A stretch of DNA of 9,989 nt, from IMG/VR virus record IMGVR_UViG_2562617151_000006, one strand, 5' to 3'. The stretch comes from a virus (Duplodnaviria > Heunggongvirae > Uroviricota > Caudoviricetes). The notes under the pieces were generated by a model that was not told the origin of the DNA, made no database searches, and saw only the letters and a list, made by a program, of their open reading frames with translations. Shown piece after piece: positions 1 to 9,989 of this stretch; positions within the stretch are counted from its first letter, which is position 1; the number at the start of each line of letters is the position of its first letter. Made by a program: the position numbers and the translations under genes.

Positions 1-1284
1 TTACAGACTTCTGGAAGGTTGCGCAGCTCTTACAACACGCGGTTGATCTTCCGCAGCGTCTTCCAGCGCACTTAAATCACGGTCTTTCACCTCTGGCATT
101 TTCAGCGCAGAGATTAAACCAATCACTGAATATGCCATGATCATAATGGCGATCGGATACCAGGATTCCGTCATGGTGCAGAAAATACCCGCCAGGATAG
201 GACCAAAACCGGAAGCGATAAGACCACCAATTTCTTTAGAAATAGCCATCCGGGTAAAGCGGTTTTTACAGCCGAACATTTCTGCCATGGTAATGTTTTC
301 CAGAGCAAATAATCCCAGCACCGCACAGTTATGAATCACAATCAGTGCAACCATAATGGTGCTCGGGGCATAGCTTTTATCTACAATGATAGAAAGCATT
401 GGCCATGCCAGCACAATCGCGGAGGTATTCATAATAATATACGGGATCCGGCGACCAATTTTATCGGATAACCAACCAAGGAACGGAATGGTCATAAAGC
501 CGAGAATCGAACTGATCATCAATGCATCTGTTGGAATTGCTTTGTTAAACAATAACGTCTGCACTAAATAGCCTGCAAGGAAAGTCTGAATTAACCCGGA
601 GTTACCCGCCTGACCAAAACGCAGCCCTGTTGCCAGCCAGAAGGATTTGCTCTGGAACATGCTACCAGCAGGTGCAGGTTTTGCTGTCGGTTGGTTACTG
701 TCGTTAACCTTCTCAAAGACCGGGCTTTCTTTCAGATTCATACGCAACCAGATAGCAAAGACCATCACGACAACACTCGCCAGGAACGGTATACGCCATC
801 CCCACGCCAGCAGTTCCTCTTTACTGAGAATGAAGAACATAAAGGCCCAGATTGCCGTTGCGCTCAAGGTTCCGCAGTTAGTTCCCATAGCCACAAATGA
901 GGAGATAATTCCGCGCTTACCTTTTGGCGCATATTCCGCCAGCATCGTACCGGCACCGGAAATTTCCGCACCTGCACCCAACCCCTGAATAATACGCAAC
1001 GTCACCAGCAAGATGGGTGCAAAAACACCAATCTGTGCATAGGTCGGTAACACACCAATTAAGGTGGTACAGATCCCCATCATGGTGATGGTAATAAAGA
1101 GCACTTTTTTACGCCCTATTCTGTCGCCCATTTTGCCGAAAATAAATGCTCCGACAATACGCGCCACATAACCTGCACCGTAGGTTCCCATTGCCAGAAT
1201 TAACGCCATTGCCGTTGATGATTCAGGAAAAAATATTTCATGAAACACTAACGCTGCGCCGAGCGAATATAACTGGAAATCCAT
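1..1284 (-). CDS. ydfJ: MFS metabolite:H+ symporter family transporter (YdfJ-like), complete at the 3' end but apparently lacking about 30 N-terminal residues
   Basis: 427-aa minus-strand ORF with multiple hydrophobic segments and MFS-type motifs (GDRIGRKK after TM2, WGWRIPF mid-protein). The N-terminus MDFQLYSLGAALVFHEIFFP aligns with the W[FY]DF..Y..FFP region that lies about 30 residues into paralogs ShiA/KgtP/ProP (recalled). Stop codon is at window positions 1-3. Confidence 0.85.
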   Translation of the reverse strand: MDFQLYSLGAALVFHEIFFPESSTAMALILAMGTYGAGYVARIVGAFIFGKMGDRIGRKKVLFITITMMGICTTLIGVLPTYAQIGVFAPILLVTLRIIQGLGAGAEISGAGTMLAEYAPKGKRGIISSFVAMGTNCGTLSATAIWAFMFFILSKEELLAWGWRIPFLASVVVMVFAIWLRMNLKESPVFEKVNDSNQPTAKPAPAGSMFQSKSFWLATGLRFGQAGNSGLIQTFLAGYLVQTLLFNKAIPTDALMISSILGFMTIPFLGWLSDKIGRRIPYIIMNTSAIVLAWPMLSIIVDKSYAPSTIMVALIVIHNCAVLGLFALENITMAEMFGCKNRFTRMAISKEIGGLIASGFGPILAGIFCTMTESWYPIAIMIMAYSVIGLISALKMPEVKDRDLSALEDAAEDQPRVVRAAQPSRSL

Positions 1285-1525
1285 AATTCACAGGTGTTTT
1301 TTCCCATCCTGTGGTTTCCTTGGCGTTTTCTAGGTTTTTTCAGATAGTTGCATTTTTTAAAAAGCATCCTAAGTTCGATCTCAGTGTCTATCTGGGGCCC
1401 ATTTCTGTCCCATATATGCCCCAAAAAAACTCCTCAACAGATAAGTAGTTTTTTCATGGAGTTACGCGTAAAATCAATAACGGCTGGAAATCATTCAATA
1501 CTCGCACTATCGAAAAATTTACCAG

Positions 1526-1568
1526 CCAACCGCAGCACGTTCTTGCATAAGGCGTGTCTGCGGTTTTT
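1526..1568 (+). terminator. Candidate intrinsic terminator-like hairpin in the ydfJ-ydfK intergenic region
   Basis: Imperfect stem ccgcagcacg (1530-1539) pairing with cgtgtctgcgg (1553-1563), one bulged base, 13-nt loop, followed by TTTTT (1564-1568). No annotated upstream gene on this strand. Confidence 0.35.
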
Positions 1569-1887
1569 CAACTATTCAGATACATCACTCCCATCACATT
1601 CATTCCTCCACATCAAAGGCATATAGGCTATATCACCTTGATATTTTTCTTCTTCAGATAAAAACTGTTATCTATGTATACTTTTAAACCCAATCCGTGT
1701 AGAGTCTCTGCATAAGATAGTTTGCAGTTGCCACTTCAGCTTGCGCCATAAACCGCCTGATTTTTGCCGCCATCTGTTAGCATTCCTGTATACCTGAAAC
1801 GACAATGTTTATCTACGAACTTTAAGAACACCCAGGATAAAAATTGTCAACTATATCATATATAACACATTACTAATTCGAGGCTAT

Positions 1888-2001
1888 ATGAACAGCATAC
1901 TGATAATCACTTCGCTCCTTATCATATTCAGCATTTTTAGTCATGCTCTAATAAAATTAGGGATTGGCATATCCAATAACCCAGACAAAACCGATGTATA
2001 A
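1888..2001 (+). CDS. Hypothetical 37-aa hydrophobic small protein ([37 protein letters not shown])
   Basis: ATG at 1888 preceded by GAGG (1880-1883), TAA at 1999-2001. One predicted transmembrane helix. Lies 68 bp upstream of ydfK on the same strand. Below the size cutoff of the ORF track. Confidence 0.3.
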
Positions 2002-2069
2002 GTCAACATATCCTGAATCAGACATACAATATCGCAATGAAAATCAATAATATTTTAAGGAATATATTC

Positions 2070-2303
2070 ATGAAATCAAAAGACACCCTAAAGTGGTTCC
2101 CTGCGCAGCTTCCTGAAGTCAGAATTATCCTAGGGGATGCTGTAGTGGAAGTAGCAAAACAGGGAAGACCTATCAATACCAGAACATTGCTTGATTACAT
2201 TGAAGGAAACATAAAGAAAAAATCATGGCTGGATAACAAAGAATTATTACAAACAGCGATATCAGTTCTTAAAGACAACCAAAATTTAAATGGTAAAATG
2301 TAA
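2070..2303 (+). CDS. ydfK: Cold-shock-inducible prophage protein YdfK/YnaE family (77 aa)
   Basis: ORF track 2037-2303. Preferred start is ATG 2070 (MKSKDTLKWF...) because it has an AAGGA Shine-Dalgarno 9 nt upstream, giving 77 aa. Sequence recalled as the YdfK/YnaE family of Qin/Rac prophages. Confidence 0.75.
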   Translation: MKSKDTLKWFPAQLPEVRIILGDAVVEVAKQGRPINTRTLLDYIEGNIKKKSWLDNKELLQTAISVLKDNQNLNGKM

Positions 2304-2619
2304 TATAATAAACTTACTTTTTTATCATTTTTCCACTTTAACAACATTTTGCTCCACTTTTCCACGACCAAACAACTTGAAATCTGGTTAAAATAACACG
2401 CAACACTATTCTTCTTCCTTGAGTCCGCCCGGAACTCGAAAAACAAACCGAGTTAAAGCCATTTTTCACAAAATCGATTTTGGGTCTCACCAAAGTTACG
2501 GGGTTGCATACGCATTCGTTTATTTTCGAACGTGTACATACAAATATGCACAAAAATAATCAAAATTATTTTCTGAGATGCATTATGATATGAACACCAA
2601 TTTCGTATAGAGTCTCACT

Positions 2620-3210
2620 ATGTCTCGAATTTTTGCTTACTGTCGGATATCAACGCTGGATCAGACCACCGAAAATCAACGCCGGGAAATCGAAAGTGCA
2701 GGTTTTAAAATCAAACCTCAGCAAATAATCGAAGAACACATTAGCGGCTCAGCAGCAACCAGTGAGCGTCCTGGTTTTAACCGGTTGCTTGCTCGCCTGA
2801 AATGTGGTGATCAATTGATTGTGACAAAACTGGATCGCCTTGGTTGTAATGCAATGGATATCAGGAAAACAGTGGAACAACTGACCGAAACAGGTATCAG
2901 AGTGCATTGCTTAGCATTGGGGGGCATTGACCTGACCAGTCCAACAGGAAAAATGATGATGCACGTAATTTCAGCAGTCGCTGAATTTGAACGAGACCTT
3001 TTACTTGAACGCACTCATTCCGGGATAGTAAGAGCCCGCGGCGCAGGGAAACGTTTTGGTCGACCACCTGTGTTAAATGAAGAACAGAAACAGGTGGTAT
3101 TCGAACGAATTAAGTCAGGTGTAAGTATAAGTGCCATTGCCCGGGAATTCAAAACCTCGCGGCAAACCATTTTAAGAGCCAAAGCAAAACTTCAGACACC
3201 TGACATATAA
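2620..3210 (+). CDS. pinQ: Serine recombinase, Gin/Hin/Pin-family DNA invertase (196 aa)
   Basis: N-terminal catalytic motif YCRISTLDQ (active-site Ser), resolvase-type catalytic domain and C-terminal HTH ([16 protein letters not shown]). Size and sequence are typical of Pin/Gin invertases. Confidence 0.9.
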
Positions 3211-3307
3211 AAAATAATCTCGGTGTGAGATGCTTTACGTCTTCCAAGCCCCCTTCCTTGCCGTAAATGGAGAGATACATCTAATTATAGAATTTATATG
3301 TTTTACC

Positions 3308-3883
3308 CTACGGCAGTGCTGGCCATTCAATATCCGGTGCAGTTGATGTATCAACACGGTTCAGCAACACCCGATACTTTTTCCAGGCTTCCAGCAACAA
3401 GGTTTCTTCCTCCGTTGCGATCTCCAGATCCACAGCATCCTGAAGCGGCGCTATATGCTCACTGGCTATCTGCATCAGGCTGTTTTTTGTTTCTTCCGCC
3501 TCCCGGATCCGGAACAGTTTTTCTGCTTCCGTATCCTTCACCCAGGCTGTGCCGTTCCACTTCTGATATTCCCCTCCCGGCGATAACCAGGTAACATTTT
3601 CCGGTAACGGACCGAGTTCAGAAATAAATAACGCGTCCCCTGATGCCACGTCATAAACCGTTTTACCCCGATGATCTTCAACGAGATGCCACGATGCCTC
3701 ATCACTGTTGAAAACAGCCACGAAGCCTGCCGGAATATCTGGCGGTGCAATATCGGTACTGTTTGCTGGCAGACCTGTATGAGGCGGAATATATGCGTCA
3801 CCTTCACCAATAAATTCATTAGTTCCGGCCAGCAGATTATAAATTTTTATGGTCCGTGGTTGTTCACTCATTCTGAATGCCAT
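3308..3883 (-). CDS. tfaQ: Tail fibre assembly protein (lambda Tfa-like, 191 aa)
   Basis: 191-aa ORF starting [18 protein letters not shown]..., recalled as near-identical to lambda Tfa. Its ATG overlaps the stop of the upstream stf remnant (TAATG), indicating translational coupling. Confidence 0.9.
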
Positions 3884-4191
3884 TACGCAAGCCTCACAAT
3901 ATAGTTAAATGCGATGTTTTTGACGGTGTTTTCCGCGTTACCAGCAGCGTTAACGGTGATGGTATGTCCATGTGAACCAATCGCAACGGAGTGCGTATGA
4001 GCACCAATACCGACAGTATGTGCGTGTGCACCTGCGCTTGCAGCAGTACCCGATACAGAGTGCGTATGAGCGCCTGCAGAAGAAGTGTTAACACTGTATT
4101 TAGAATAATCAGGTGATCCACTTCCCGGAGCACCACTGGAACCACCTGAAACAAATGTCATCGAATGGGTATGTGCACCGGCTGTCCCCAT
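3883..4191 (-). pseudogene. stfQ: Side tail fibre (Stf) C-terminal remnant, about 100 codons
   Basis: ORF ends ...[30 protein letters not shown], matching the recalled lambda Stf C-terminus. Contains repeated GAHTHS/GAHAHT His-rich motifs. No credible N-terminal part; the frame breaks near 4158-4191. Confidence 0.8.
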
Positions 4192-4445
4192 GCATTTACC
4201 GCCCGGACTGTCAGCCTGTAATTTCCCAGCGCCAGCTGCGTGAAGCGATATGTGGTTTCCGTCGTCCGGGCCGTGCTGACCAACCGCTCACTGCCGTCGT
4301 CCGCTGCCACGGTCAGGCGAAGCATAAAGCTCACCCCCTTCACCACCTTCGGCGTGTCCCAGCGCGCCAGCACCTGGTATTCCCCGCTGTCTGCGGTGAC
4401 TTCTGCGGTCAGGTGCTGAACTGCTGGCGGCGTGACACCATTCAC
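4158..4445 (-). pseudogene. Internal fragment of a lambda J-type tail tip/host specificity gene (FN3-like segment)
   Basis: 95-codon frame with ...[66 protein letters not shown], recalled as an internal segment of lambda gpJ. Starts at a GTG that overlaps the nohA stop (GTGA). Different frame from the stf remnant. No real start or full-length gene. Confidence 0.65.
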
Positions 4446-4987
4446 CGTGCCGCTCTGGTCACCGTCAAAGTGCGCCCCGTTATCAGTTCATCCAGCGCGG
4501 CTGCTTTGTTCATGGCTTTGATGATATCCCGTTTCAGGAAATCAACATGTCGGTTTTCCAGTTCCGGAAAACGCCGCTGCACCGACAGGGGGATCCCGTC
4601 GAGAATACTGGCAATTTCACCTGCGATCCGCGACAGCACGAAAGTACAGAATGCGGTTTCCACCACTTCAGCGGAGTCTCTGGCATTTTTCAGCTCCTGT
4701 GCGTCGGCCTGCGCACGCGTAAGTCGATGGCGTTCGTACTCAATAGTCCCTGGCTGGAGATCTGTCTCGCTGGCCTGCCGCAGTTCTTCAACTTCCCGGC
4801 GCAGCTTTTCGTTCTCAATTTCAGCATCCCTTTCGGCATACCATTTTATGACGGCGGCAGAATCATAAAGCACCTCATTACCCTTGCCACCGCCTCGCAG
4901 AACGGGCATTCCCTGTTCCTGCCAGTTCTGAATGGTACGGATACTCGCACCGAAAATGTCAGCCAGCTGCTTTTTGTTGACTTCCAT
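4442..4987 (-). CDS. nohA: Terminase small subunit, lambda Nu1 homologue (181 aa) with a divergent C-terminal tail
   Basis: MEVNKKQLADIFGASIRTIQNWQEQGMPVLRGGGKGNEVLYD... (winged-HTH DNA-binding N-domain) is recalled as essentially identical to lambda Nu1 until the last 13 residues or so, which diverge at a deletion junction. K-12 synonym nohQ. Confidence 0.9.
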   Translation of the reverse strand: MEVNKKQLADIFGASIRTIQNWQEQGMPVLRGGGKGNEVLYDSAAVIKWYAERDAEIENEKLRREVEELRQASETDLQPGTIEYERHRLTRAQADAQELKNARDSAEVVETAFCTFVLSRIAGEIASILDGIPLSVQRRFPELENRHVDFLKRDIIKAMNKAAALDELITGRTLTVTRAAR

Positions 4988-5230
4988 TGTTCATTCCACG
5001 GACAAAAACAGAGAAAGGAAACGACAAAGGCCAAAAAGCCCGCTTTCAGCACCTGTCGTTTCCTTTCTTTTCAGGGGGTATTTTAAATAAAAACATTAAG
5101 TTACGACGAAGAAGAACGGAAACACCTTAAACCGGAAAATTTTCATAAATAGCGAAAACCCGCGAGGTCGCCGCCCCGTAACCTGTCGGATCACCGGAAA
5201 GGACCCGTAAAGTGATAATGATTATCATCT
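4988..5230 (-). other. Lambda-type cohesive end site (cosB with R1/R2/R3 and I1, cosN, cosQ-side flank)
   Basis: Reverse complement of 5165-5176 is GGGCGGCGACCT, the lambda 12-nt cohesive end. Flanks read (rc) ...CCGACAGGTTACG|GGGCGGCGACCTCGCGGGTTTTCGCTATTTATGAAAATTTTCCGG..., matching the recalled lambda ends. Nu1-binding R elements at 5012-5026, 5053-5067 and 5110-5126 (CGTTTCC cores); AT-rich IHF-like segment at 5078-5100. Confidence 0.8.
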
Positions 5231-5375
5231 ACATATCACAACGTGCGTGGAGGCCATCAAACCACGTCAAATAATCAATTATGACGCAGGTATCGTATTA
5301 ATTGATCTGCATCAACTTAACGTAAAAACAACTTCAGACAATACAAATCAGCGACACTGAATACGGGGCAACCTC

Positions 5376-5609
5376 ATGTCAACGAAGAACAGAACCCGCA
5401 GAACAACAACCCGCAACATCCGCTTTCCTAACCAAATGATTGAACAAATTAACATCGCTCTTGAGCAAAAAGGGTCCGGGAATTTCTCAGCCTGGGTCAT
5501 TGAAGCCTGCCGCCGGAGACTGTGCTCAGAAAAAAGAGTTTCTTCTGAAGCAAACAAAGAAAAGAGTGACATTACTGAATTGCTCAGAAAACAGGTCAGA
5601 CCAGATTGA
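5376..5609 (+). CDS. ynfO: Small ribbon-helix-helix-like protein (YnfO/YlcI family, DUF3950), 77 aa
   Basis: Basic N-tail, then a beta-strand-like RNIRFP followed by two predicted helices (NQMIEQINIALEQ; NFSAWVIEACRRRL), the typical RHH pattern. Position between cos and the lysis cassette matches the recalled Qin ynfO. Confidence 0.7.
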   Translation: MSTKNRTRRTTTRNIRFPNQMIEQINIALEQKGSGNFSAWVIEACRRRLCSEKRVSSEANKEKSDITELLRKQVRPD

Positions 5610-5666
5610 AGCAATTTAGATAATCGTGCAGACTACGCCCCCTCATATCACATGGAAGGTTTATCT

Positions 5667-6077
5667 ATGGATCAGGTAGTCATTTTTAAACAAATATTTG
5701 ATAAAGTTCGAAACGATTTAAACTATCAATGGTTTTATTCTGAGCTAAAACGTCACAATGTCTCACATTACATTTACTATTTAGCCACAGAGAATGTTCA
5801 TATTGTATTAAAAAATGATAATACAGTGTTATTAAAGGGCCTAAAAAACATTGTGTCTGTCAAATTTTCAAAGGATAGGCATCTTATAGAAACGACCTCT
5901 AATAAGCTGAAATCCAGAGAGATCACATTTCAGGAATACAGAAGAAACCTTGCTAAAGCAGGAGTTTTTCGGTGGGTTACAAATATCCACGAACAAAAAA
6001 GATATTACTATACCTTTGATAATTCATTACTATTTACTGAAAGCATCCAGAAAACTACACAGATCTTACCACGCTAA
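5667..6077 (+). CDS. ydfO: DUF1398 family protein (YdfO/YbcV-like), 136 aa
   Basis: ORF track 5652-6077. Preferred start is ATG 5667 ([10 protein letters not shown]...) with GGAAGG 7 nt upstream. Lies 57 bp downstream of ynfO on the same strand. Recalled as YdfO. Confidence 0.8.
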
Positions 6078-6228
6078 ACCATAACGTCCGGCTTCTCTCA
6101 CTCCTGAGCCGGACTGCATTGGTTTAATAAAAACCATCAACAATTGTGATTTAGATATTCGGAACCATTCAAATATAACAAAACCCCGTAAAAACGAGGT
6201 TTATGGATAAATTTTATTATTGAATACA

Positions 6229-6402
6229 TCAGATTAAATTAATCTTGACATCATAGCTTTCAAGACCCGTCATTTTTTCCCGTGCGGTAAACTGAATACT
6301 GGTAACTTCTTTCCCGGTCTTTTTCTTAAGTTCAATAATTTTTTTTGTTATATATTCAGAAATATCTGCTTCTGCTTTTGTTTTTAAGTTTTCAATATTC
6401 AT
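6229..6402 (-). CDS. gnsB: GnsB, small protein (57 aa), multicopy suppressor of secG null (Gns family)
   Basis: Minus-strand ORF MNIENLKTKAEADISEYITKKIIELKKKTGKEVTSIQFTAREKMTGLESYDVKINLI, translated by hand. Below the ORF track size cutoff. Recalled as GnsA/GnsB family. Confidence 0.75.
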   Translation of the reverse strand: MNIENLKTKAEADISEYITKKIIELKKKTGKEVTSIQFTAREKMTGLESYDVKINLI

Positions 6403-6573
6403 CATTTCCTCTTTTAGTCTGTTATGACTTTCCAGTTACACAGTAAGTCGATTATATGGTGCAAACGTGTAAAAGATAAGATGAAACATCGCAATAATCA
6501 ACATACGATAGTCTAAATTTTACACAAACAGACAAAGAGAATTTTCCTGAATTATCAATGCAATAGCATCAAA

Positions 6574-6729
6574 TCAACTCAAGAGCCTTATTGCTGCTTC
6601 CAGAATTTCTTCTGAAGTAACATGTCGATCCGCGGCTACATAAATGACTTTATGATCTCCGGTCAGAGATGGAAACCCTGCGGCCATTACAGTAAGGTGT
6701 GTTTTTTCGCCATTTGGATATTCACGCAT
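6574..6729 (-). CDS. ynfN: Small cold-shock-inducible prophage protein YnfN (51 aa from the preferred start)
   Basis: ORF track gives 6574-6846 (90 codons). Preferred start is ATG 6727-6729 (MREYPNGEKTHLTV...) with GGAG upstream. A terminator T-tract overlaps the far-upstream start at 6846, arguing against the long form. Start is uncertain. Confidence 0.55.
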   Translation of the reverse strand: MREYPNGEKTHLTVMAAGFPSLTGDHKVIYVAADRHVTSEEILEAAIRLLS

Positions 6730-6845
6730 GATGGTGTTAACTCCAGTCATCGCTGGCACTACCACTGCTGGTTCAGAGTTAAAAAAAACTATGATTTTTT
6801 TCATGATGTTACCGTAGTATGTGAGTATCCATCGAATAGACACCA

Positions 6846-6868
6846 AGCAAAAAAGCTCCCGAAGGAGC
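6846..6868 (-). terminator. Rho-independent terminator downstream of cspI (minus strand)
   Basis: Stem GCTCC (6855-6859), loop CGAA (6860-6863), stem GGAGC (6864-6868). On the minus strand it is followed by a TTTTTTGC run (complement of 6846-6854). Confidence 0.6.
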
Positions 6869-7075
6869 CTTCATTTTCACTTTTTTAAATCCAACGACAG
6901 ACGGCTGGCATTTAAGTATTGTGAAATATTATCAAATGTAATCATCATTGATTTACAAAAGATACATTTTGCCCCGAAAGGATTCATGTCAGAAACATCA
7001 AAAGATGATGTTCTATACTGGGAACCATGACAACACGGGCATCTAAAGTGAATATGGTTTGTAATATTGTCTACC

Positions 7076-7288
7076 TCAAAGCGCCACTACATGAACAGCG
7101 GCAGGACCTTTAGGTCCGTTCTCAATACCAAATTCAACTTCCTGATTCTCAGTTAATGTTTTGAAATCGTTGCTCTGAATTGCTGAGAAATGGACAAACA
7201 CATCTTTGCTGCCATCTTTCGGCGTGATGAAACCAAAACCTTTTTCAGGGTTAAACCATTTCACTAAACCAGTCATTTTGTTAGACAT
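7076..7288 (-). CDS. cspI: Cold shock protein, CspA family (70 aa)
   Basis: [38 protein letters not shown]... carries the RNP1 (KGFGFI) and RNP2 (VFVHF) motifs of the cold-shock domain. AAGG Shine-Dalgarno upstream. Recalled as CspI of Qin. Confidence 0.9.
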
Positions 7289-7430
7289 AATTATTACCTT
7301 TTGAAGAAATTAGCCCTTGGGCAGAATGGTCCGAAAAAAAATATCAGAGAGAAAAACCAACAAGGAAATCTCAAGAGGTACAAATAATAAAATTATAACA
7401 ATGACTGCTTCAGATAAATTTGTAACAAAC
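7289..7430 (-). promoter_or_regulatory. Putative cspI promoter and long 5' UTR
   Basis: A perfect TATAAT on the minus strand (complement of 7392-7397) lies about 105 nt upstream of the cspI ATG, in an AT-rich region. CspA-family genes are known to have long structured 5' UTRs. Exact transcription start and any cold-box are not determined. Confidence 0.4.
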
Positions 7431-7650
7431 CAGAACACCATTAACGCATGATTAACCACCCATAGCAAGGATTACTTTTGTAAAGAAAAACACAGCAATG
7501 AAAGAATAGCTTTATTTATTAATAAAACGTGTCATTCTGATTAAGACCTTTTATCTTACCCTTAAGATTTCAGGAATTTTGGCTCATGGAAGAGTCCTTT
7601 TTATTTAAATTTTACATTCCGCGATGTAAATGTTCCGATTTAATATTACC

Positions 7651-8674
<1,024 letters not shown>

Positions 8675-8678
<4 letters not shown>

Positions 8679-8986
8679 AGATATTTATGATGAGGACGCT
8701 CGTGCTTATTGGCAGGATTTTCAATCTTAAAGGAGTACTGATGCTGCAGATAAGACTCAACTTTTTCTGACAATTTTTCTGCTACTTCCAGGAAGACTTG
8801 CCGGACGCTCCTTCTGGCTGCTGCCTCATAAAACTCCAGCGCAGCTCCTTCAACACGGTCCATGGCGACATCCAGGTCAAAAATTTCACCGTCAAAGCGT
8901 TCTTTGTCCTGTAAGGCTACAGTTACCGTAACTTTATTCTCAAAATTACGGACTCCTTTCACAACCAGTTCATAGTCTTGAGTCAT
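8675..8986 (-). CDS. ydfR: DUF1327 family protein of unknown function, located between holin and endolysin genes (103 aa)
   Basis: 103-aa ORF with no transmembrane segment, acidic and helical. Recalled as YdfR. Tightly packed: 4 bp after essQ, and its stop overlaps the rrrQ start. Confidence 0.8.
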
Positions 8987-8990
8987 TGGA

Positions 8991-9206
8991 TTACTCTCCT
9001 CTCGCAGCCTTACGCCTGTCTTCTTTAATCTTGAAATAAAGATTTGTCAGATACGTCAGCAGGCCAAAAACCAGGCTACCCAGCACACCGATTGCAGCCC
9101 ACTGTGACGGAGTTACTTTATCGAGTAACTGCAATGCCCAGAAACCAGCATTACCCGCCGATGTGCCATAGGCAACACCTGTTGTTAACTTATCCATTGA
9201 TTTCAT
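8991..9206 (-). CDS. essQ: Class II holin, phage 21 S21-like pinholin with dual-start motif (71 aa)
   Basis: [28 protein letters not shown]...[18 protein letters not shown] has two transmembrane domains, an MKSM dual start (Met1/Met4) and a charged C-terminus, matching the recalled S21 pinholin. The track's extension to 9281 adds an unlikely 25-aa N-terminal arm. Confidence 0.85.
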
Positions 9207-9425
9207 ATCCTCACCCCGATGTACACGGATGGTGCAATATGTTTGAAAAGATCGGAGTCTACGGGGTAGTTTTGACAGCACACGTTGTTCTCAACGGCGC
9301 TAAAAAAACATACACATTAAAAATGTGGGTAATTATTTTGAAAGAAAGTCATATATAAAATAATAATACGAGAAATGTTTTCATATTTAGTGTACTGTAT
9401 ACGGCCATTTATACAGGAAAAGCCT

Positions 9426-9596
9426 ATGTCAGAACGTAAAAACTCAAAATCACGCCGTAATTATCTCGTTAAATGTTCCTGCCCAAACTGCACCCAAGAG
9501 TCAGAACACAGTTTTTCAAGAGTACAAAAAGGTGCCCTTTTGATCTGCCCTCATTGCAACAAAGTATTCCAGACAAATCTTAAAGCTGTAGCCTGA
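9426..9596 (+). CDS. ynfU: Small zinc-ribbon protein (CxxC-x18-CxxC), 56 aa; possibly YnfU
   Basis: ATG 9426 with AGGAAA Shine-Dalgarno 6-7 nt upstream. MSERKNSKSRRNYLVKCSCPNCTQ...ICPHCNKVF has four Cys in two CxxC knuckles. Gene name is from uncertain recall. Confidence 0.5.
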   Translation: MSERKNSKSRRNYLVKCSCPNCTQESEHSFSRVQKGALLICPHCNKVFQTNLKAVA

Positions 9597-9655
9597 TTGA
9601 TTTTATTAGTAACAAGTATTTTTTATATTTTAATAATATATTTAAAGCAGATAAT

Positions 9656-9679
9656 AAAAAACCCGCCTGAGCGGGTTTG
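9656..9679. terminator. Bidirectional-looking intrinsic terminator hairpin
   Basis: AAAAACCCGC-CTGA-GCGGGTTT: a 6-8 bp GC-rich stem with 4-nt loop, flanked by an A-tract upstream and T-tract downstream. The T-run is stronger on the minus strand (TTTTTATTAT). Confidence 0.6.
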
Positions 9680-9744
9680 AGATTGTGGTGCTTTTTGTGG
9701 GAGTCATCCACTTACGCACTTTGTTTTGCCATGCCAGCAGTTAG

Positions 9745-9989
<245 letters not shown>

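Follow-up and report, generated by a model that had tools for sequence, protein, structure and literature searches.

The gene pinQ, at the left end of the Qin prophage of Escherichia coli, is annotated and discussed together with the pinR gene of the Rac prophage as one of the 'Pin-like DNA invertases' of E. coli K-12. We analysed it in a stretch of 9,989 nucleotides of viral DNA (IMG/VR record IMGVR_UViG_2562617151_000006, hereafter the window). An original prediction made on this DNA had taken the invertases Gin of Mu, Cin of P1 and Pin of e14 as its frame of reference and had described pinQ as an orphan invertase, whose switchable tail-fibre segment was lost or never existed. Our results point elsewhere: pinQ is probably the resolvase gene (tnpR) of a Tn3-family transposon that inserted beside the tail-fibre assembly gene tfa and then decayed, and it would never have been associated with an invertible tail-fibre segment. 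As read from the sequence, pinQ and its flanks are homologous to and collinear with intact transposons, a recognisable crossover site has been lost, and the arginine equivalent to R71 of Tn3 resolvase has become a cysteine.

Proteins 78-85% identical to PinQ are TnpR resolvases of a Tn3-family transposon. In a plasmid collection, 1858 records hold PinQ-like proteins (E<=1e-40), about 1650 of them 60-90% identical, and the 78-85% identical relatives occur also in many enterobacterial genomes. We compared 78 loci from one-genome-per-species contigs, plus two plasmid loci. At 22 loci a divergent open reading frame (ORF) of 994 amino acids (aa), with DUF4158 and DDE_Tnp_Tn3 domains, lies directly upstream of tnpR; at eight further loci a Tn3-family transposase is found at a greater distance. 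The elements of these relatives end in 38-bp terminal inverted repeats (IR; GGGGTCCGCTTGGAAAACGGAAAWTATCCYACGCTAAG), and perfect 5-bp target duplications were seen in five of the six that have both ends. The smallest, 3814 bp long and carried by an IncI/K plasmid, reads IR-tnpA<res>tnpR-IR. Such a 3.8-kb transposon is present on IncI, IncK, IncF and Klebsiella plasmids, for example pRM10386-2 (locus L008, 1824-5637) and pECOED (L007). The plasmid annotation names it just 'Tn3 family transposase', and a text search of the literature for its IR came back empty; it may be Tn5403-like.

The spacer between tnpA and tnpR in these relatives, of about 160 bp, was aligned across 62 non-redundant loci and contains six half-sites with the consensus TGTMCGAAA. 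Site I, nearest tnpA, is a 26-bp palindrome, TGWCCGAAACCG-RY-CGGTTTCGTACA. It is followed by a 14-bp spacer, by site II with its inverted half-sites 14 bp apart, by a TATAAT hexamer, and by site III, whose two direct half-sites end about 10 bp before the start codon. The central dinucleotide of site I is asymmetric, being GT or AC relative to tnpR according to the locus (CCGGTCGG vs CCGACCGG; e.g. L020 vs L023). The centre of site I in Tn3 is a symmetric AT.

Much of this order can still be followed around pinQ. The 140 bp upstream of the gene align to the family res consensus with no indels, and a degraded terminal repeat lies downstream of its stop codon:

2304-2506, no strand: prophage-specific spacer from ydfK to the res relic, where tnpA would begin in an intact element
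2507-2609, plus strand: decayed relic of res, in register with the family res
2507-2532, plus strand: what remains of res site I (the crossover site), aligned in register with its counterpart in the 62 non-redundant relatives
2547-2578, plus strand: relic of res site II, its two half-sites inverted and separated by 14 bp, placed by the family alignment
2584-2589, plus strand: hexamer between sites II and III that is probably the -10 element of the tnpR/pinQ promoter, TATGAT versus TATAAT in relatives, recognised from the family consensus and with a presumed promoter function
2587-2609, plus strand: relic of res site III, with two half-sites in direct orientation, the second of which (III-R, 2600-2609) reads ATTTCGTATA
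2620-3210, plus strand: pinQ, a tnpR-type small serine recombinase gene with an uninterrupted ORF of 196 aa (Pfam Resolvase and HTH_7)
3219-3253, minus strand: relic of the tnpR-proximal terminal IR with a 3-bp deletion, from alignment to the 3814-bp plasmid copy

The res relic is in register and strongly decayed, as the scores of its half-sites under the family model indicate:

I-L: -0.2 bits in the window; family median 12.1, 5th percentile 6.0
I-R: 5.6 bits in the window; family median 16.3, 5th percentile 8.6
II-L: 3.5 bits in the window; family median 15.1, 5th percentile 10.0
II-R: -3.6 bits in the window; family median 15.9, 5th percentile 9.9
III-L: 0.8 bits in the window; family median 12.3, 5th percentile 6.3
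III-R: 10.9 bits in the window; family median 12.9, 5th percentile 7.7

Five of the six half-sites thus score below the family 5th percentile and only III-R is still of family grade. As a pair, the two halves of site I reach 5.3 bits. In the family the median for this pair is 27.0 and the 5th percentile 18.8, and shuffled windows yield a best pair of 3.0 +/- 3.6 on average. Neither the window nor the entire genome of 2H10, a lambdoid phage with a complete 46-kb sequence, has a site-I-type pair that scores higher than the relic itself, and no second family-type site I was found in the window, in K-12 Qin, Rac or e14, or anywhere in 2H10. We considered that the prophage res might have acquired an altered specificity instead of decaying, and rejected this: the recognition helix is invariant and the six relic half-sites share no new consensus. 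To judge from the alignment, the window's res is homologous to the family res and very probably non-functional. A separate family-grade half-site (TGACCGAAAC, 12.3 bits) lies inside pinQ at 2882-2891 on the plus strand, over the codons L-T-E-T; it recurs in 2H10, has no inverted partner and is probably due to chance.

These scores bear on the notion that PinQ is a working resolvase of its own res-like region, resolving for example phage or prophage multimers. The collinearity of the relic with functional res, its one good half-site and the conserved ORF speak for it. Yet site I scores at background level and has lost its palindromic core, the catalytic arginine is missing (see below), and each phage genome has only one such region; lambdoid phages are not known to need a resolvase. 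We regard this explanation as very improbable.

At the other end of the gene, the local alignment of the region comprising the stop codon and the IR to the 3814-bp copy scores 40, compared with 13.5 +/- 2.2 in shuffles (maximum 26; about 12 standard deviations), and by eye 25 of the 38 IR positions match without gaps. The outer GGGG end of this relic is 55 bp from the stop of the neighbouring gene, tfaQ. Nothing else of the transposon was recovered: a tblastn search found no similarity to TnpA in the window, the region upstream of the res relic (2200-2510) held nothing above shuffles when compared with the tnpA side of the plasmid copy, and in the plasmid collection 2304-2506 matches prophage-type sequences only. 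A Tn3-family transposase gene adjoining pinQ is absent from the window, and the opposite transposon end is lost as well. What the window appears to hold is a collinear relic, res'-tnpR-IR', and not a transposon.

The genes on both sides of the relic are arranged as follows:

1-1284, minus strand: ydfJ', a truncated host gene, on the 5' side of pinQ
2070-2303, plus strand: ydfK, also on the 5' side of pinQ
3308-3883, minus strand: tfaQ, the sole tail-fibre assembly gene (Pfam Caudo_TAP 2.4e-43), neighbour of the relic and outside it
3883-4191, minus strand: C-terminal stub of the tail-fibre gene stf, fused to a J fragment

The original prediction had described this layout correctly. pinQ is convergent with the single tfa gene of the window, with 97 bp between the stops (3211-3307), and its 5' side faces ydfK and the host junction; stf is represented by the C-terminal stub alone, and nohA comes after the stub and J fragment in the gene order. 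What had been made of the layout, a segment lost or never present and an invertase oriented atypically relative to tfa, has to be separated into its parts. There is indeed no invertible segment at pinQ. Its loss is contradicted by other prophages and phages. Rac carries a matching module, stfR>tfaR><pinR<ynaE, with the same 97 bp between tfa and pin. The pin gene is 99.5% identical in phages 2H10 and Turner and is found also in the records of mEp460, Tritos and HannyBb; at the 2H10 and Turner loci, which we examined, 97 bp separate it from the only tfa, and the stf in front of that tfa is full-length. Functional phages share the stf>tfa><pin order exactly, so nothing invertible has gone missing beside pinQ: the layout is native. 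As for the orientation, if pinQ is the tnpR of a transposon, its direction relative to tfa is an accident of insertion.

The search for crossover sites leads to the same picture. Sites of the Din family of invertases (Gin, Cin, Pin, Hin) take the form TTNTCNNAAACC-NN-GGTTTNNGANAA, 26 bp long, with two inverted copies flanking the segment. A 26-bp consensus built on gix, hix and pix (TTNTCNNAAACCNNGGTTTNNGANAA) recovered both e14 pix and both Mu gix sites at two mismatches or fewer, and matched nowhere in the window at up to three mismatches, in agreement with the earlier failure to find a gix- or hix-like palindrome near pinQ. Single Din half-sites (TTNTCNNAAACC, at most one mismatch) number three in the window against 4.3 expected, none of them near pinQ. 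The half-site-like 8-mer AAACCGAG that had been pointed out is where it was said to be, at 2445-2452, but it carries no significance: one match against 0.28 expected, with at least one in 50 of 200 shuffles (25%), so that we rejected it as a crossover half-site. The original prediction had named a pair of inverted crossover sites flanking tfaQ and stf as a finding that would overturn it. We looked for one: neither in the window nor in 2H10, an intact phage, are tfa and stf flanked by inverted repeats above noise. Nor is there a segment with two tfa genes and alternative stf C-termini; the window, Rac, 2H10 and Turner each have a single stf/tfa.

One might still suppose that pinQ is a Gin/Cin/Pin-type invertase whose adjacent tail-fibre segment was deleted. 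It adjoins stf and tfa as gin, cin and pinE do, Gin is the best sequence match of PinQ in the PDB, and the invertase gene of P1 likewise points toward its segment. In e14 and Mu there are two opposed tfa genes and the invertase is divergent from the segment. This explanation is hardly credible in view of the functional phages with a single stf/tfa and the same 97-bp gap, the lack of Din-type sites and inverted repeats, the res and IR relics that flank pinQ, and the close relatives that are TnpR genes accompanied by tnpA. In addition, a published BLAST analysis with the whole of Qin and Rac found no natural inversions except those of e14 (PMC12529663).

The protein also fits poorly among the invertases. 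PinQ has an N-terminal Resolvase domain (PF00239, 3.6e-36) and a C-terminal HTH_7 domain (PF02796, 3.8e-11), and is 38% identical to PinE, the Pin of e14. By domain, the identity is 46% in the catalytic domain, 41% in the E-helix and 23% in the DNA-binding domain, where Gin and PinE share 83%, 83% and 66%. The DNA-binding domain of PinQ is 82% identical to that of the plasmid TnpR and only 18-23% to those of Gin and PinE. Its recognition helix (R181, Q182, T183, I184, L185, R186) is invariant across the PinQ/TnpR family, and the motif RQTILR stands where Din invertases have STLY[KR]. No NCBIfam equivalog was obtained for PinQ, the best candidate being the Mpi family with 86 bits against a cut-off of 272. 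On these comparisons PinQ would not be an invertase of the Gin/Hin/Cin/Pin type in a functional sense, and the earlier frame of reference gives way to that of the Tn3-family resolvases. The same applies to the Fis-dependent enhancer that had been expected in the 5' coding region by analogy with gin, hin and cin. A degenerate Fis consensus matched neither pinQ nor two TnpR homologues, in a scan that is weak, since its controls gave a single shared candidate (centred at +78 in gin and pinE). Resolvases rely on accessory res subsites and not on a Fis enhancer, and a relic of such subsites is what lies upstream of pinQ. Terminator and promoter scans around pinQ gave nothing informative.

PinQ had been judged intact because of its active-site serine and its helix-turn-helix. 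The ORF, S11 and HTH_7 are there, but codon 76 (2845-2847, plus strand) is TGT, encoding cysteine, where the alignment places R71 of Tn3 and gamma-delta resolvases (motif DRLGR). The matching arginine is present in gamma-delta and Tn3 resolvase, in Gin and in PinE. Every transposon copy that we examined has CGT at this codon, whereas Qin, phage 2H10 and the P0009 prophage lineage have TGT, a difference of a single transition; Cys76 appears also in the translations of PinR, phage Turner and K-12 PinQ. Among the 78 loci, residue 76 is arginine in 66 and cysteine in 9, the gene being truncated or unreadable in 3. Eight of the nine cysteine loci encode a protein at least 98% identical to that of the window, and the ninth is a 2H10-like variant. 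The P0009 lineage has Cys76 while being only 84% identical, and its gene is likewise convergent with tfa. The remaining catalytic residues Y7, R9, S11 and R73 are in place and position 39 is Glu throughout the family; of the Tn3 set (Y6, R8, S10, D36, R68, R71), PinQ lacks the R71 equivalent. In Tn3 resolvase, the R71A and R71K mutants cleave single strands at about 0.0007-0.0009 of the parental level and do not recombine in vivo or in vitro (PMC2794168). By analogy, Cys76 would cripple strand cleavage and exchange by PinQ.

Between pinQ and the plasmid tnpR, the nonsynonymous and synonymous divergences are dN 0.09 and dS 0.6 (dN/dS 0.15), and a dS of about 0.6 implies that the relic is old. 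Within the clade of cysteine-bearing genes dN/dS is 0.37. When dN is partitioned with outgroups (dN alone, since dS is saturated), the PinQ branch carries about 0.06 and the sister transposon branch 0.007-0.018, a rate some 3-10 times faster. Constraint on the PinQ branch appears relaxed rather than absent. One locus complicates such estimates. In E. coli GCA_910593615.1 (L089, 7940-8560), the promoter-proximal region and most of the coding sequence are 95-100% identical to the IncI-plasmid transposon and Arg76 is restored; the replaced part is bordered by relic sequence at either end, and site I and the IR remain decayed. This pattern is evidence that plasmid transposons and the prophage relic continue to exchange sequence by gene conversion.

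One challenge to our interpretation is experimental. Kirigo et al. (NAR 2025) reported that PinQ protects against phage T2: survivors bear a 1797-bp inversion of the e14 P segment, and the resulting chimeric StfE2 blocks adsorption (PMC12529663). Plasmid-expressed PinQ left P 88% inverted, against 26% with the empty vector; deletion of pinQ reduced survival of T2 infection 400-fold and was complemented; the effect of PinQ was absent in delta-stfP, delta-stfE and delta-e14 hosts; and pinQ/pinR mRNA rose 14-fold upon infection (PMC12529663). These data, with the cross-reactivity of Din enzymes (Pin on G or H segments) cited as precedent, argue that T2-induced PinQ directly recombines the e14 pix sites in trans (PMC12529663). 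Action in trans on the P region had also been proposed in the original prediction, which in this respect matches the published claim.

Whether PinQ itself catalyses the inversion is another matter. All inversion assays were made in pinE+ cells, and a catalytic mutant, complementation of delta-pinE or an in-vitro assay are not listed (PMC12529663). In Table S4 of the same study, P was inverted in 30 +/- 2% of the wild type, 22 +/- 3% of delta-pinQ and 1.5 +/- 0.2% of delta-pinE, and pinE mutants are described as 'locked' with pinQ and pinR present (PMC12529663). Native PinQ and PinR thus produce no detectable P inversion without PinE, and the locking of delta-pinE at 1.5% makes direct catalysis by PinQ doubtful. 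PinQ lacks the R71-equivalent arginine, its DNA-binding domain is 23% identical to that of PinE, and under the TGTMCGAAA half-site model the values are -25 to -32 bits for pix and gix together and -30 to -32 for pix. The precedent fails for a relative at 38% identity, because the cross-reacting Din enzymes are about 66-83% identical per domain. Moreover, an 88:12 steady state is not expected of a freely reversible invertase, and PinE itself gave 49% (PMC12529663). We therefore consider direct recombination of pix by PinQ unlikely. Most likely, the effect of PinQ on P orientation is indirect or depends on PinE.

Several points nevertheless weigh against our reading of pinQ as a decayed tnpR. 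The inversion obtained with plasmid-borne PinQ and the 400-fold drop in survival mean that PinQ does something, and direct catalysis at a low level may be part of it. The R71 mutants of Tn3 resolvase were called 'not inert' (PMC2794168). About half of the complete E. coli genomes have the ORF uninterrupted and with a conservation of at least 99%, and dN/dS values below one (0.37, 0.15) imply that some function is maintained; gene-conversion patches from plasmid copies blur these estimates of selection. Finally, the half-site model and the res sites derive from conservation among relatives and not from footprints.

With these points in mind, the history of pinQ as a transposon's tnpR may be pictured as follows. 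A Tn3-family transposon would have entered an ancestral lambdoid phage of the Rac/Qin type at a point some 55 bp downstream of tfa. Its decay would have deleted tnpA and left res (2507-2609), tnpR and the IR (3219-3253) in their original order. PinQ would have lost efficient strand cleavage and exchange and would have no cognate site left, and most likely it still binds DNA of the TGTMCGAAA type. It would bind the promoter-proximal half-site that its own promoter has kept and repress itself, as Tn3 TnpR does, and it may also bind the intact res of related transposons on incoming plasmids.

From here one might speculate, very tentatively, that PinQ and PinR are exapted, catalysis-deficient resolvases kept by phages of the Rac/Qin type as trans-acting DNA-binding proteins, a proposal more likely wrong than right by a wide measure. 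Since the recognition helix is shared with active resolvases, an exapted PinQ could occupy the res of related transposons, where it would repress tnpA and tnpR or, as a dominant negative, interfere with the resolution of cointegrates. It could instead bias the P inversion catalysed by PinE or regulate host genes, with no chemistry of its own. Exaptation would account both for the reported phenotypes and for an ORF that is conserved although the cis sites next to it are dead. A preprint reportedly credits PinR with transcriptional repression, which would fit a DNA-binding role. Our search of the literature found no experiment on cointegrate resolution by the TnpR family to which PinQ belongs.

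Of 5426 complete E. coli genomes, 2868 carry the relic with its res', gene and IR', which is at least 99% identical in most of them; recent spread contributes to this apparent conservation. Copies outside the enterobacteria call for care. Three contigs of metagenome-assembled genomes, assigned to Alistipes, Draconibacterium and Caldithrix (L011, L015, L016), bear an E. coli pinQ/pinR at 98-99% identity, which is almost certainly bin contamination. The 'trematode' matches of PinQ cited in PMC12529663 deserve the same caution.

Some features of the window stand apart from the fate of pinQ. By alignment, the window is the left end of an E. coli Qin prophage close to but distinct from that of MG1655, with 98.5% identity over 1-4071 and 99.8% over 4475-9744. 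The junction between stfQ and the J fragment (4071-4475) spans about 404 bp, versus about 782 bp in MG1655 (L001, 5074-5856). The unequal identity of the two sides and the differing junction suggest that this Qin copy is a mosaic carrying an internal deletion of its own. Homology to MG1655 Qin ends at 9744, and the final 246 bp (9744-9989) are 86% identical to part of an IS5Y in Rac on the opposite strand (L003, 4551-4796), which suggests an IS5-family element at the right edge. The spacer between ydfK and the res relic has a direct repeat, CAYTTTTCCAC, at 2326-2336 and 2355-2365, 29 bp apart and kept in Rac and 2H10. Within the 3' part of tfaQ, and on its strand, Rfam finds the candidate small RNA IS009 (RF02111; 3342-3540, minus strand; 221 bits, gathering score 117). 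The Rfam cspA thermoregulator at 7049-7434 (minus strand, 113 bits) corresponds to the 5' leader of cspI; several cold-shock genes are carried by phages of the Qin/2H10 type. Just upstream of nohA, the gene for the terminase small subunit, a perfect 15-bp inverted repeat (AGAAAGGAAACGACA / TGTCGTTTCCTTTCT; 5012-5026 and 5054-5068, 27-nt loop) may be part of the cos region.

Our search of the literature found neither a transposon origin for pinQ nor the change from arginine to cysteine. In itself the relic is of a familiar type, the tnpR of a Tn3-family element together with its res and IR, and it has been mis-filed as a Pin-type invertase. If pinQ is a decayed tnpR, the puzzle of the missing invertible segment dissolves into a dead res, a dead IR and a catalytic arginine that is gone. 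The relic illustrates how a fragment of a transposon can ride in the lambdoid phage gene pool, and its identity provides a sequence-based reason to re-test the 2025 claim that P inversion made by PinQ is an anti-phage defence.

How pinQ compares with known systems can be summarised from the most distant to the closest. The Din invertases, Gin of Mu, Pin of e14, Cin of P1 and Hin of Salmonella, belong to the same superfamily, have the same size, adjoin tail-fibre genes as PinQ does, and include its best PDB match. They are 36-39% identical to PinQ overall and 18-23% in the DNA-binding domain. The crossover sites of both families are 26 bp long and contain AAACC...GGTTT, but the two motifs are 4 bp apart in the PinQ family and 2 in Din, and the outer half-site bases are unrelated. 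Unlike the Din systems, PinQ has no invertible segment, paired sites or Fis consensus in its gene.

Tn3 and gamma-delta (Tn1000) have in common with the relatives of PinQ a small serine recombinase with Resolvase and HTH_7 domains, divergent tnpA<res>tnpR, and a tnpR promoter that overlaps the accessory sites II and III. Their res has the same arrangement with site I nearest tnpA, and their half-sites read TGTCYG, which the PinQ-family half-sites, starting TGTC/TGTA-CG, resemble. The 38-bp GGGG...ACGCTAAG repeats and the 5-bp target duplications of the PinQ relatives are equally Tn3-like. Yet PinQ shares only about 30% identity with gamma-delta/Tn3 resolvase; site I, a palindrome in its family, measures 26 bp there and 28 bp in Tn3; and the half-sites of site III are direct in its family and inverted in Tn3 and gamma-delta. 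Relative to these transposons, the window has lost tnpA, five of six half-sites and the IR have decayed, and R71 has been replaced by cysteine.

The 3.8-kb plasmid transposon is closer still. Its TnpR is 84-85% identical to PinQ, its promoter-proximal 65 bp are nearly identical and its spacing from stop to IR is the same; unlike the window, it has intact tnpA, res and both IRs, target duplications and Arg76. Closest of all are PinR of Rac and the pin genes of 2H10, mEp460, Tritos and Turner, 99-99.5% identical to PinQ (99% in the case of PinR), which have Cys76, the res relic and the convergent tfa in common with it and differ from it in nothing substantive. They are copies of one relic, some of them inside fully functional phages.

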